Virus record (IMG/VR): IMGVR_UViG_3300045988_134731
Span: 64,001 to 128,000 of that record
Length of the DNA: 64,000 nt
From: a virus
Direction: 5' to 3' (one strand)
Continued below: a report on this DNA, generated by a model with database tools. The letters are not shown here.

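Follow-up and report, generated by a model that had tools for sequence, protein, structure and literature searches.

Motif positions 1-14 form a perfect 14-nt mirror repeat (AAATAAT/TAATAAA) in every copy in the window; it is a mirror repeat rather than a reverse-complement palindrome. This symmetry is probably incidental, and it is because of the mirror repeat that the motif carries doubled TAA stops in two of its frames. Between 36.8 and 39.5 kb in the window, we also found a conserved module on the 5' side of several long-box copies (the extended form of the 15-mer), consisting of a GC-containing hairpin followed by TAGCTCAA, with examples at 39449-39490, 38249-38285, and 36848-36885. Since this module precedes the long boxes, the hairpin, long box, and promoter together constitute a repeated intergenic unit of the origin-proximal early region. 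Three perfect DnaA-box repeats (TACTTGTGGATAACT; 42893-43092) sit where the GC skew switches, and upstream of the Rep3 gene there are three iterons (CCCTTAAAAACACATATT; 47187-47333). These repeats make up the probable replication origin of a plasmid prophage, and the two gene arms diverge from it.

A second oriented element in the window is bipartite and promoter-like, and reads TCATAGGTAATTT, 13 nt, GTTAATAY, 10-20 nt, and the SD. All seven copies are co-oriented and lie 5' of genes, and they occur in both arms and the central block (5348-5360, 13199-13211, and 27282-27294 on the minus strand; 47448-47460, 47584-47596, 48015-48027, and 50375-50387 on the plus strand). At two sites, the 15-mer is positioned between the bipartite element and the SD. 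The phage encodes three sigma-like proteins, namely two small ECF-like paralogs with regions 2 and 4 (19761-20333 and 20778-21338, minus strand) and a 392-aa protein (51725-52903, plus strand) that matches PHROG 5767, "sigma factor". A homolog in SPbeta was found for none of the three. It is plausible that the bipartite element represents a promoter class for these phage-encoded sigma factors.

The early arm also carries at least four members of a paralogous gene family with products of ~259 aa (5-664, 16729-17508, 24776-25555, and 34984-35763, all minus strand), which share 70-75% DNA identity; additional copies occur in loci L019 and L021. Pfam gave no confident assignment for these paralogs, only a single weak UvsY match. 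Each full-length paralog in the window (3/3) has an RBS-type copy of the 15-mer on its 5' side. Just beyond the window, the contig's early arm contains an inserted IS605-family OrfB/TnpB (Cas12f-like) gene (L021 16211-17308).

In the plus arm, the terminase large subunit, which is homologous to SPbeta yonF, occupies two separate ORFs (57335-57811 and 58739-59809, plus strand) because of a ~930-bp interruption whose length differs among relatives. Rfam detected no intron there, and the interruption may represent either an intron that escaped detection or an insertion of the homing-endonuclease type. Two paralogous genes with DUF4379 treble-clef zinc-finger domains (55178-56143 and 61511-62509, plus strand; ~66% DNA identity) lie on both sides of the terminase-portal region.

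The cultured Clostridioides difficile phage-plasmid LIBA2945 (MF547663; L064) carries its own co-oriented box, (AAC)TAAATAAAAT, at L064 18811-18857 and about 14 other sites. Two copies flank the -35 of the promoter of the operon containing xerC and the MrpR-like gene (LIBA2945_00135, annotated as "hypothetical protein"), and other copies lie directly 5' of SDs. LIBA2945 could serve as a tractable model system.
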